From a virus (lineage: Duplodnaviria; Heunggongvirae; Uroviricota; Caudoviricetes): a stretch of DNA of 13,925 nucleotides. The stretch lies in the IMG/VR virus record IMGVR_UViG_2684623077_000006. One strand, written 5' to 3'. The translations under genes and the position numbers were made by a program. Position 1 is the first letter of the stretch. Each line of letters starts with the position of its first letter. The notes beneath the pieces are model-generated. The model searched no databases. It was not told where the DNA came from and saw only the letters and a list, made by a program, of their open reading frames with translations. Positions 2,575-3,454 of the stretch are shown here, piece after piece.

Positions 2575-2778
2575 ATGAGAAATCATACCACACACCCGCA
2601 AGGGCGGGATTCGCACAACCTGAATAAATACATCTGGCGTTTTATCGCCCTGAGCACGGCACAACCGCGTGTGATTACCATCGAGGCCACCAGCGAACAG
2701 GAAGCCCGTCAGCAATCCCCGACTGGCTGCGTGATGGTATTCGCCGCCCGTATTCGTCAGGGGTCACATCATGCGTAA
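2575..2778 (+). CDS. Icd-like small protein (P4 host cell division inhibitor Icd-like family), 67 aa
   Basis: MRNHTTHPQGRDSHNLNKYIWRFIALSTAQPRVITIEATSEQEARQQSPTGCVMVFAARIRQGSHHA; GAGG 5 nt upstream of ATG 2575. The 5' part of the long ORF 1870..2778 is Cys/Ser-rich low complexity and is not called. Confidence 0.6.
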   Translation: MRNHTTHPQGRDSHNLNKYIWRFIALSTAQPRVITIEATSEQEARQQSPTGCVMVFAARIRQGSHHA

Positions 2779-3454
2779 AAACCGCTTGCAAAAAATTATC
2801 ACGGGGCTGTATGCTTCCCCCGTCGCCCACATGGCGACCGGGTTTGACAGCCTGAATACTACAGCGGACAGCCGCTTACATTCCGATATGCGGTTTTTTT
2901 GTGTCCGTAAACCTACCCATACCCGCATTATGGCGGGGCGTAACGGGGGAGCCTTTGCGCTCGCTGGTTCCTGTAGTGCCAGTCTGTCAACCCTGTTACG
3001 TCTCGCCACCATGTTTGACAGCGTAGTAGCGAGACTCCTTAATTTCACTACAGGAGCCTTTCACATGGCTGTATTCGCACGCCCTTATTTTGTCTGGCGC
3101 TTTATGCAGTGCCTGACAGACAGCATTGCAATATTCACCGTTACCGCTGCCACTGAGCGCGAAGCACGTGCACAGCTGCCGCACGCACATCTTATTTTTG
3201 TCGCCCGTATTCGCCAGGGGGGAGTCATGCATAAAATACCCTTTGATGTTCTTGTTCATTCTGAAAACGCATTAATCCGCGCAAAGGAAATGGACGCATT
3301 ACTACTTAAGTTAATTGATGTGCCGGAAAGTGGCGAAGATCATTCATCATTAATGTTTGCCGCTGTTCAGACATTATTGACACCTGTTATTGATGAACTC
3401 AATAAGGCTATGGCAATTCACGAGAATAATAAAGCGCCCCACACCGGAGAATAA
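2771..3454 (+). CDS. Hypothetical protein with an internal second Icd-like/Ash-like domain (227 aa if read from 2771; true start uncertain)
   Basis: Uninterrupted frame. Residues 105-150 (YFVWRFMQCLTDSIAIFTVTAATEREARAQLPHAHLIFVARIRQGG) are paralogous to the 2575..2778 protein. Alternative in-frame starts at 2930, 3011, 3065 and 3227 cannot be resolved from sequence. Confidence 0.5.
   Translation: MRKNRLQKIITGLYASPVAHMATGFDSLNTTADSRLHSDMRFFCVRKPTHTRIMAGRNGGAFALAGSCSASLSTLLRLATMFDSVVARLLNFTTGAFHMAVFARPYFVWRFMQCLTDSIAIFTVTAATEREARAQLPHAHLIFVARIRQGGVMHKIPFDVLVHSENALIRAKEMDALLLKLIDVPESGEDHSSLMFAAVQTLLTPVIDELNKAMAIHENNKAPHTGE

Follow-up and report, generated by a model that had tools for sequence, protein, structure and literature searches.

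Antisense immunity systems in which a C4-type RNA is followed by an Icd-like gene have been described in phages P1 and P7 (the immI region) and in P4, and a related arrangement is found in Gifsy-1. They are compared here with a locus in IMG/VR record IMGVR_UViG_2684623077_000006, a 13,925-nucleotide (nt) stretch of Caudoviricetes DNA, that carries two tandem Icd-like genes at positions 2575 to 3454 with a C4-type RNA gene between them. Throughout, "the window" means this whole stretch, and coordinates are counted from its first letter. In P1 and P7, immI has the order a1, b1, C4, a2, b2, icd, and P1 b2 adjoins the Shine-Dalgarno (SD) sequence of icd and partly overlaps it. In P4, a C4/CI-family RNA follows an isrK/seqA-like element, the Icd-like leader gene kil stands directly after the RNA, and primase genes lie downstream. 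A long P4 open reading frame (ORF), eta, begins upstream of the internal promoter and runs in frame across the RNA gene into kil; an excerpt of PMC10111431, citing Forti et al. 1999, states that eta is translated and prevents termination, and that Kil is made from an internal start. As for the leader proteins themselves, P1 Icd inhibits cell division (as cited in a part of PMC8198154) and P4 Kil kills cells when overexpressed (an excerpt of PMC10111431). In the Gifsy-1 IsrK-STnc1160-orf45-anrP region, IsrK (seqA-like) is followed by a processed C4-like RNA and a short leader ORF that overlaps the following start with its stop codon, and translational coupling of orf45 with anrP, downstream of IsrK and the C4-like RNA, has been shown experimentally (PMC4825925).

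The window encodes int, AlpA, a D5-type primase, SSB, an HK97-type capsid, a protease, a portal, HNH, TerS and TerL, as do Gram-negative and capsid-forming phage-inducible chromosomal islands (PICIs), and it is a capsid-forming PICI-like integrative phage satellite. Some of its components are already known from such elements: according to excerpts of two papers, Rfam C4 and isrK models match several Gram-negative PICIs (PMC10111431), and Icd-like proteins occur in most Enterobacter satellites (PMC13612085). The same excerpts make no mention of a tandem Icd-(C4-Icd)n arrangement or of the conserved junction described below. The region is probably the early-operon immunity module of the satellite, belonging to the known P1 immI/P4 immunity system. 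In order, the module consists of a divergent promoter, Icd-like copy 1, an internal promoter, a1/b1 (seqA/IsrK-like), C4/CI, a2/b2, Icd-like copy 2, a gene of 75 amino acids (aa), DUF4222 and the primase, and confidence in this anatomy is high. The features at its core are these:

2575..2778, plus strand: Icd-like copy 1, 67 aa, ATG 2575, TAA 2776-2778; NF033153 E 1.4e-19; promoter-proximal
2760..2778, plus strand: predicted coupling junction 1; SD-like GGGG 2760-2763, ATG 2771, TAA 2776-2778, 8-nt overlap ATGCGTAA
2771..3064, plus strand: eta-like open frame that begins at the junction ATG, crosses the RNA cassette and shares its frame with ATG 3065
2786..2815, plus strand: putative internal promoter TTGCAA-18-TATGCT, matching in position the annotated P1c4/P51b promoter of P1
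2809..2858, plus strand: c4-a1b1 element, Rfam RF03163, 46.8 bits
2822..2900, plus strand: isrK/seqA-like element (two hairpins, a weak hairpin and a T-run), RF01394, sub-threshold
2842-2851, plus strand: a1 site GTTTGACAGC, complementary to C4 loop a'
2858-2865, plus strand: b1 site ACTACAGC, beginning at the 3' edge of c4-a1b1 and reaching 7 nt beyond it
2926..3013, plus strand: C4/CI-type antisense immunity RNA, Rfam RF01695, 72.3 bits (gathering threshold 45), model positions 1-87
3013-3022, plus strand: a2 site GTTTGACAGC, downstream C4 target
3046-3058, plus strand: b2 site CACTACAGGAGCC, covering the copy-2 SD AGGAG
3065..3226, plus strand: Icd-like copy 2, NF033153 E 1.7e-13; reads on in frame to 3454 in the window
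3217..3234, plus strand: predicted coupling junction 2; G6 run 3217-3222, ATG 3227, former copy-2 TAA 3232-3234, now out of frame
3227..3454, plus strand: 75-aa gene (phrog_2196), PHROGs E 1.4e-10; in the position of P4 epsilon and P1 ant

The P4 gene order given above recurs in the window, including the long ORF that runs from upstream of the putative internal promoter across the RNA gene into the Icd-like gene. The C4/CI-family RNA scores 74.9 bits in P4 (72.3 in the window); the ATG of the long ORF overlaps the stop of the upstream gene, as ATGA for eta/vis and, by its sequence, as ATGCGTAA in the window; and an SD with an 8-nt start/stop overlap joins kil or icd to the next small gene. The site order of P1 and P7 immI is likewise shared, together with high nucleotide identity across the cassette (window 2834-3023 shares ~80% identity with the c4 region of P1 and 75-82% with the c4 regions of P7 and D6). 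P1 also has a G-run SD at the 3' end of icd, followed by an overlapping next start, and the b specificity sites differ between elements as they do between P1 and P7. Gifsy-1 has the same succession of IsrK, C4-like RNA and overlapping leader ORF, and its isrK model matches the window below the gathering threshold (35 bits against 50).

There are also differences. In the window, the eta-like ORF would be coupled to a second Icd paralog, whereas P4 eta is coupled to Vis/AlpA; the window's AlpA gene lies ~900 bp farther upstream, with a divergent YlcI/YnfO gene in between. In sequence the cassette belongs to the P1 type (~80%), the translation of its frame has no Phage_ASH match while P4 eta does, and the 75-aa gene is not detectably related to epsilon and falls in a different PHROGs family. 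P1, by contrast, has one icd and no upstream Icd gene, its frame across c4 is closed by stops, its overlap is ATGA and its Icd C-terminus is longer. The P1 operon promoter is controlled by C1 and the gene under control is an antirepressor, unlike the satellite replication genes of the window. In Gifsy-1, the small RNA activates translation of the leader ORF instead of repressing it, and the orf45 protein is poorly conserved (PMC4825925) while the Icd-like domain of the window is well conserved. The differences from P4 and P1 are modest: a second Icd as coupling partner, a frame outside Phage_ASH, and controlled genes like those of capsid-forming PICIs.

The two Icd-like ORFs are, judged by sequence, genuine diverged paralogs. 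An earlier sequence-only reading of the locus, made without database searches, had aligned 2575-2778 with 3065-3224 at roughly 40% identity, and this is borne out by BLASTP (19/45 identical residues, 42%, E 4e-11), so that the similarity reaches well past the shared motif ARIRQG. Both copies match NF033153 (NCBIfam phage_ICD_like, 'host cell division inhibitor Icd-like protein'; 48 profile positions, cutoff 25 bits), at 69.9 bits for copy 1 and 50.4 bits for copy 2, each covering profile positions 1-48. The copy-1 ORF is annotated identically in relatives by the Prokaryotic Genome Annotation Pipeline (PGAP), and the exact protein is present in public collections under the name 'Icd-like'. Copy 2 has its SD, AGGAG, at 3052-3056, upstream of ATG 3065; its start aligns with the icd starts of P1 and P7, and it occupies the position that icd has in P1 and kil in P4.

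At the nucleotide level, the likeness of the two copies is concentrated at their 3' ends, as the earlier reading had noticed. Identity is 21/24 (88%) over the last 8 aligned codons (2740-2763 versus 3197-3220) and 46/108 (43%) over the preceding 36, and this 24-mer match is the best of 29,529 offsets (mean 25%, sd 9%). It continues past the motif, through the start/stop overlap (repeat D1: TCATGCGTAAAAA at 2769-2781 versus TCATGCATAAAAT at 3225-3237). Within the window, the excess of synonymous identity at the 3' end is not significant: of the last 8 codons, 7 encode the same amino acid, and 5 of these 7 use the same codon, against 6 of 12 elsewhere. The case for a nucleotide-level signal therefore comes from comparison across genera and not from identity within the window.

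For this comparison, 31 Icd-like ORFs were assembled from 18 Icd-like loci in at least 13 Enterobacterales genera, together with E. coli relatives and P1. In 26 of the 31, an ATG stands exactly 5 nt ahead of the first base of the stop codon, giving an 8-nt overlap of the form ATGNNTRA, with an SD (CAGGAGGTG, CAGGGGG or similar) 5-7 nt before the ATG. The remaining five comprise two with ATGA (P1 and copy 2 of L002, one of the related loci, which are numbered L001 to L031), and one each with an 11-nt overlap, no overlap and, in the window, the frameshifted copy 2. Codons of the Icd tail, Q-E/G-V/G-x-H-A/V-stop, encode the SD (CAG GAG GTG) and the start (CAT Gxx), so the tail is literally the SD and start of the next gene. 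Downstream ORFs are 59-106 aa long at 8-nt junctions and 347 aa (ant1) in P1, and, judged by length and annotation, the genes downstream appear to differ in identity. For example, P4 kil, which is itself Icd-like (NF033153 E 7.8e-21), ends ...GGAGGTGTCCCGTGCGTAA (also written ...GTGGAGGTGTCCCGTGCGTAA) and overlaps epsilon by 8 nt. P1 icd, whose C-terminus is longer and unrelated, ends ...CAGGGGGGTTTATGA (also written ...GTTCAGGGGGGTTTATGA) and overlaps ant1, with the G-run CAGGGGGG followed by ATGA. Homology with ~645 further E. coli genomes stops at 2763-2767, right after the G-run, which makes the junction a module boundary as well. The shared 3' end is thus likely to be a translational-coupling junction common to the whole family. 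This largely agrees with the earlier proposal that the G-rich motif is a conserved SD for a coupled downstream frame, with ATGs at 2771 and 3227, both of which are present. The proposal holds for the junctions, including P4 kil/epsilon and P1 icd/ant1. It does less well for the frame at 2771, which runs over RNA genes, since 2809-3013 encodes c4-a1b1 and C4, a cassette that the sequence-only reading had overlooked.

The evidence for this cassette comes from structure as well as from covariation. C4 has its b' loop at 2970-2977 and its a' loop at about 2984-2990; the segment folds with a minimum free energy of -46 kcal/mol (z -5.65), and 12 of 26 predicted pairs show compensatory double changes in an alignment of 13 homologs. 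The order a1-b1-C4-a2-b2-icd is identical to the P1 annotation, as is the position of c4-a1b1 and its a1/b1 sites. Target sites were found as inverted repeats (I8; I9, 13 nt, 92%; I14) and then located exactly, b2 showing 92% complementarity with the C4 loop across 13 nt. Across the window, L002-L005, L021, P1, P7, D6 and Ro157c2, a1/a'/a2 and b1/b'/b2 covary three ways. For instance, b1/b'/b2 read ACTACAG/CUGUAGU/ACTACAG in the window, CATCTGG/CCAGAUG/CATCTGG in L002 and L003, and CAGATAG/CTATCTG/CAGATAG in L005, and a sites alternate between TTGACAG and TTAGCAG across loci. Such covariation is the signature that would be expected of functional antisense targeting with distinct immunity specificities. 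At least six b types and two a types are seen among the window, L002-L005, L021, L001 and L027-L029, and these concerted changes imply distinct, predictable immunity groups of satellites, some of them with the a site of P1. In the alignment with P1, P7, D6, Ro157c2 and L021, the hexamers of the putative internal promoter are conserved and the spacer is variable. The RF01394 threshold is passed by P4, L020, L021 and module 1 of L004.

Copy 1 was also considered as a C4 target and rejected, as no a or b site lies near its ribosome-binding site. The codons for its conserved IWRF (2630-2637, ACATCTGG) and those of P1 icd (TCATCTGG, L001 1759-1766) are similar to the b1/b2 site that the L002/L003-type C4 (b' CCAGAUGA) targets, so a heterologous C4 could pair inside the Icd coding sequence; this likeness may be coincidence. 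Elsewhere in the window, the a site GTTTGACAGC has a third exact copy at 10079-10088 (plus strand), inside the portal gene, and the b-site octamer ACTACAGC has a fourth at 704-711 (plus strand), inside int. A chance occurrence of the portal-gene 10-mer is unlikely (~0.03 expected by estimate), and there is no paired b site close by.

Whether copy 2 is fused to the 75-aa gene or separate from it had been left undecided in the earlier reading. A functional fusion, encoded by a 227-aa ORF (2771-3454) or a 129-aa ORF from 3065, is highly improbable. The frame is unbroken in the window, and sporadic similar cases exist. In the closest relatives, IAI39 and S1-CAM-02-A, however, the alignment shows G7 (CCAGGGGGGGAGTCATGCATAA) where the window has G6, and with this one additional base copy 2 ends in ARIRQGGSHA and a stop, with a ATGCATAA overlap onto a separate 75-aa gene, paralleling the end of copy 1 (ARIRQGSHHA and a stop, ATGCGTAA). 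The 212-nt match at 99.1% that these two strains give recurs with CE10, AR_0013 and N32. In the more distant A34, the junction is poor in G and equally long (CAGGAGGTGCACCATGCATAA), with an ending ...ARIRQxxxHA, a stop, and the ATGCATAA overlap onto a separate 75-aa gene; in relatives, this gene is a separate coding sequence with the 8-nt overlap. L002 has the ATGA ending and two extra small genes. Neither the 227-aa nor the 129-aa fused protein has an exact match among ~15 billion public proteins, while the unfused 154-aa protein is found on 598 contigs and the exact 75-aa protein on 485. The other fusions in the full search, P0040 (130 aa) and P0135 (216 aa), are singletons that each occur on one contig, and their junctions are different. 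In addition, the first 98 codons from 2771 overlie the putative internal promoter, a1b1, the T-run and C4. Because relatives with G7 have the stop, the fused protein is absent and other fusions are singletons, the in-frame join is, as far as the alignments indicate, either the loss of one nucleotide in this lineage or a sequencing error in the homopolymer, and not a conserved fusion. The downstream 75-aa protein could still be made from ATG 3227. Related islands with one copy and a clear stop, which the sequence-only reading would have counted against it, do exist (L024-L026); they speak against the fusion and leave the paralogy of the two copies unaffected.

The frame that opens at ATG 2771 resembles P4 eta in position. 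The equivalent ORF of relatives, 153-154 aa long, carries the PGAP annotation 'Icd-like protein'. The frame is open in all satellites examined (the window, L002-L005, L020 from Acerihabitans, L021 from Escherichia sp., and P4), with no stops against 3-8 in the other two frames of the window, L002, L005, L020 and L021; it has 2-4 stops in P1, P7, D6 and Ro157c2. Among island homologs, variable sites are spread evenly over its codon positions (38/40/35), while copy 2 shows a third-position excess (19/13/25), and the window and L002 differ by compensated +1/-1 indels. This codon-position spread, the indels and the stops in P1-type elements argue against conventional coding. The frame has no NCBIfam family match, the 227-aa ORF containing it has no Pfam match, and PHROGs gives two weak matches (E 0.0025-0.0043). 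The sequence-only reading had named both the Icd and the Ash families as candidates for a profile search: the former fits both copies, while the Ash family was rejected, with no NCBIfam Ash match and no Pfam PF10554 match at E <= 0.1 for ORF 2771-3451 or the 154-aa homolog in L003. PF10554 (Phage_ASH) matches P4-type cassettes only: P4 eta (82 bits), L020 (92 bits) and L004 module 1 (30 bits).

Where PF10554 does match, it covers a part of the eta frame in which seqA/isrK and CI/C4 are encoded as well (P4, L030 8171-8767, minus strand; L020 2473-3180; L004 302-640), and a PGAP 'ash family protein' pseudogene in L004 overlies isrK and C4. Two PHROGs with matches to Icd-like proteins, 6196 and 1743, bear the label 'transcriptional repressor', as does the RefSeq eta/kil ORF of P4 ('cI gene product'). 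An RNA locus may be what these Ash and PHROGs protein-family labels largely reflect.

By analogy with P1 immI, P4 immunity and Gifsy-1 IsrK, the module would probably work as follows. C4, processed from transcripts of the internal promoter, would pair with a2/b2 and occlude the copy-2 SD. With translation of copy 2 blocked, no ribosomes would be handed over to the 75-aa gene, DUF4222 and the primase, and premature termination would also be probable; the replication genes would stay off because they are inferred to need both handed-over ribosomes and translation against premature termination, and the satellite would remain quiescent. When the upstream promoter, presumably controlled by a repressor, fires, copy 1 would be translated, and ribosomes would re-initiate at ATG 2771 and, in the eta-like frame, read through the RNA cassette to copy 2 and beyond. 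The upstream-promoter transcript would then be insensitive to C4, as with P4 PLL/eta. Confidence in this bypass step is moderate. On the reading as a whole, the Icd ORFs would act at least partly as leader or coupling ORFs.

A number of observations weigh against this reading. C4 processing, both promoters and the coupling are all inferred. A consensus promoter scan of 2350-3300 on both strands reported no promoter, so both putative promoters fail it and rest on alignment or inspection; the internal element has 8 of 12 consensus positions and is too weak for such a scan. The c4-a1b1 element clears its gathering threshold (46.7) by just 0.1 bit, and the isrK/seqA-like element fails the RF01394 threshold (E 9.8e-6) and folds weakly (z -1.65); its terminator was not reported by the terminator scan. 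The copy-1 SD, GGGG placed 7 nt upstream of ATG 2771, is weak. Conservation of the junction across loci is partly shared ancestry and not independent evidence, and the 3' identity within the window could be explained by the conserved peptide F-x-ARIRQG alone. On this last point hangs an alternative for the whole junction, in which two independent division inhibitors share that C-terminal peptide, helped by recombination or gene conversion, and the 3' end plays no role in translating the next gene. The near-complete residue identity of the last 8 codons, and codon identity not clearly above that elsewhere, would suit it. So would the mosaic nature of Icd alleles (L025 has a copy-1 N-terminus and a copy-2 body, L026 is three-part) and the break in homology with hundreds of genomes right after the motif, as expected of a recombination junction. 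Nevertheless, we consider it improbable: the tail residues past ARIR(Q) vary (QGSHHA, QGGSHA, QEVRHV, REGHHA, PEVRNA), as if nucleotides were constrained, while the SD-like purine run and the ATG at exactly -5 persist in the great majority of ORFs. Even P1 Icd, with its different C-terminus, keeps the G-run and overlapping start, and coupling of an equivalent ORF is known from Gifsy-1.

A further alternative accepts the cassette and concerns ATG 2771 only. This start may be vestigial, inherited with a duplicated junction, in which case the frame is untranslated and copy 1 is an extra Icd upstream of a P1-like immI cassette. The frame would then be open solely through conservation of the underlying RNA sequence, which could indeed keep it open. 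The missing codon-position signature, the compensated frameshifts relative to L002, the outcome of the family searches, the closure of the frame in P1, P7, D6 and Ro157c2, and the poor copy-1 SD are all in its favour. However, the absence of stops extends to variable segments such as the b' loop and to P4, whose eta is reported as translated (see the excerpt above), and each of the five two-copy loci whose junction was examined (the window and L002-L005) keeps the ATG at -5. We therefore regard a vestigial start as possible but doubtful, and prefer the bypass through the eta-like frame.

The two-copy form is one of several. In many islands of E. coli, the divergent YlcI/YnfO gene is directly followed by just one Icd, which is coupled to the same 75-aa gene (L024-L026). 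The junction of copy 1 with a1b1, a marker of the two-copy form, occurs in 99 of 5,426 complete E. coli genomes. L004 (E. coli S1-CAM-02-A) carries two full modules at 431-1316, isrK-C4-Icd followed by a1b1-C4-Icd, and L031 (E. coli A19) has Icd-C4-Icd-C4-Icd at 428-1493; the C4 copies within each of these arrays have different loop sequences. Written as Icd-(C4-Icd)n, n is 0 in many islands, 1 in the window and ~99 E. coli genomes, and 2 in strain A19. The single Icd genes at L025 1416-1616 and L026 1381-1575 are chimeras in which copy-1-type segments are joined to copy-2-type ones, the crossovers lying at two conserved stretches, WRF and EAR/ARIRQG. Recombination between tandem copies with loss of the C4 cassette is expected to yield such genes, and Icd paralogs evidently recombine. 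A more speculative proposal, which we consider unlikely in its entirety, is that in these satellites an Icd-like ORF with its SD-ATG-stop junction is a portable 'ribosome hand-over' cassette marking module boundaries. Icd-(C4-Icd)n arrays would have grown by recombination at the junction, the promoter-proximal Icd would launch ribosomes through the satellite's own C4 gene and override immunity on induction of the upstream promoter, and stacked C4 b types would confer immunity to, or cross-talk with, several P1- and P4-like elements. The G-run could also act as a slippage site giving an occasional Icd-downstream fusion, which is the least likely part of this proposal.

Around the core of the module lie the following features:

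2202..2384, minus strand: YlcI/YnfO-family small gene, NCBIfam NF041551, E 9.6e-18; divergent from the Icd operon
2443..2498, strand not assigned: inverted repeat I3, 17-nt arms, 88% complementary, in the divergent intergenic region from the YlcI/YnfO gene to Icd copy 1
3460-3759, plus strand: DUF4222 gene, Pfam PF13973, E 5e-24
3756-5504, plus strand: D5-type primase/helicase gene with D5_N, DUF5906 and Pox_D5 domains

DUF4222 and the primase/helicase (3460..5504) are presumably under the control of the module. The YlcI/YnfO gene, annotated beside an Icd-like gene in relatives too, is a candidate regulator of the upstream promoter. The inverted repeat (arms TTGAAGTGTATTTCACC and GGTGAAATACACCTGAA), which is kept in the single-copy island L024, is a possible operator of that promoter, which may correspond to a weak -35/-10 pair read by eye (TTGAAG-17-TAAATT) that the repeat overlaps. 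The sole find of the terminator scan, over 2350-3300, was a minus-strand terminator-like hairpin inside this repeat. The leader at 2440-2575 was considered as a degenerate remnant of a C4 3' half and rejected, since the alignment showed no homology and the leader matches those of single-copy islands instead.

Upstream, a 302-codon open frame (1870-2778, plus strand) begins 12 nt past the AlpA stop and runs in frame into Icd copy 1, antisense to the YlcI/YnfO gene and to a second small minus-strand ORF. In relatives, part of this region is annotated by PGAP as a pseudogene, 'Icd-like protein, missing C-terminus' (e.g. L002 2129-2689). This frame may have arisen as an antisense artefact, or it may be what is left of an eta-like ORF formerly coupled to alpA. 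The Rfam int-alpA RNA motif (RF02996) is present in related islands (L006 117-185, L018 4869-4935 and L019 264-329), with no match in the window at the gathering threshold.

In summary, no new mechanism is needed for any of these findings. They correct the annotation, in that the 153-154-aa 'Icd-like protein' of relatives and the 227-aa ORF of the window mostly overlie the C4 RNA gene and its targets. P1 icd, P4 kil and the Icd-like genes of satellites would share one common conserved coupling junction, which supports a role for Icd-like ORFs as leader or coupling ORFs of antisense-RNA immunity switches, beyond the inhibition of division. The covarying a and b sites, together with the tandem C4-Icd modules of E. 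coli satellites, may be used to predict immunity groups among PICIs and P4-like elements.

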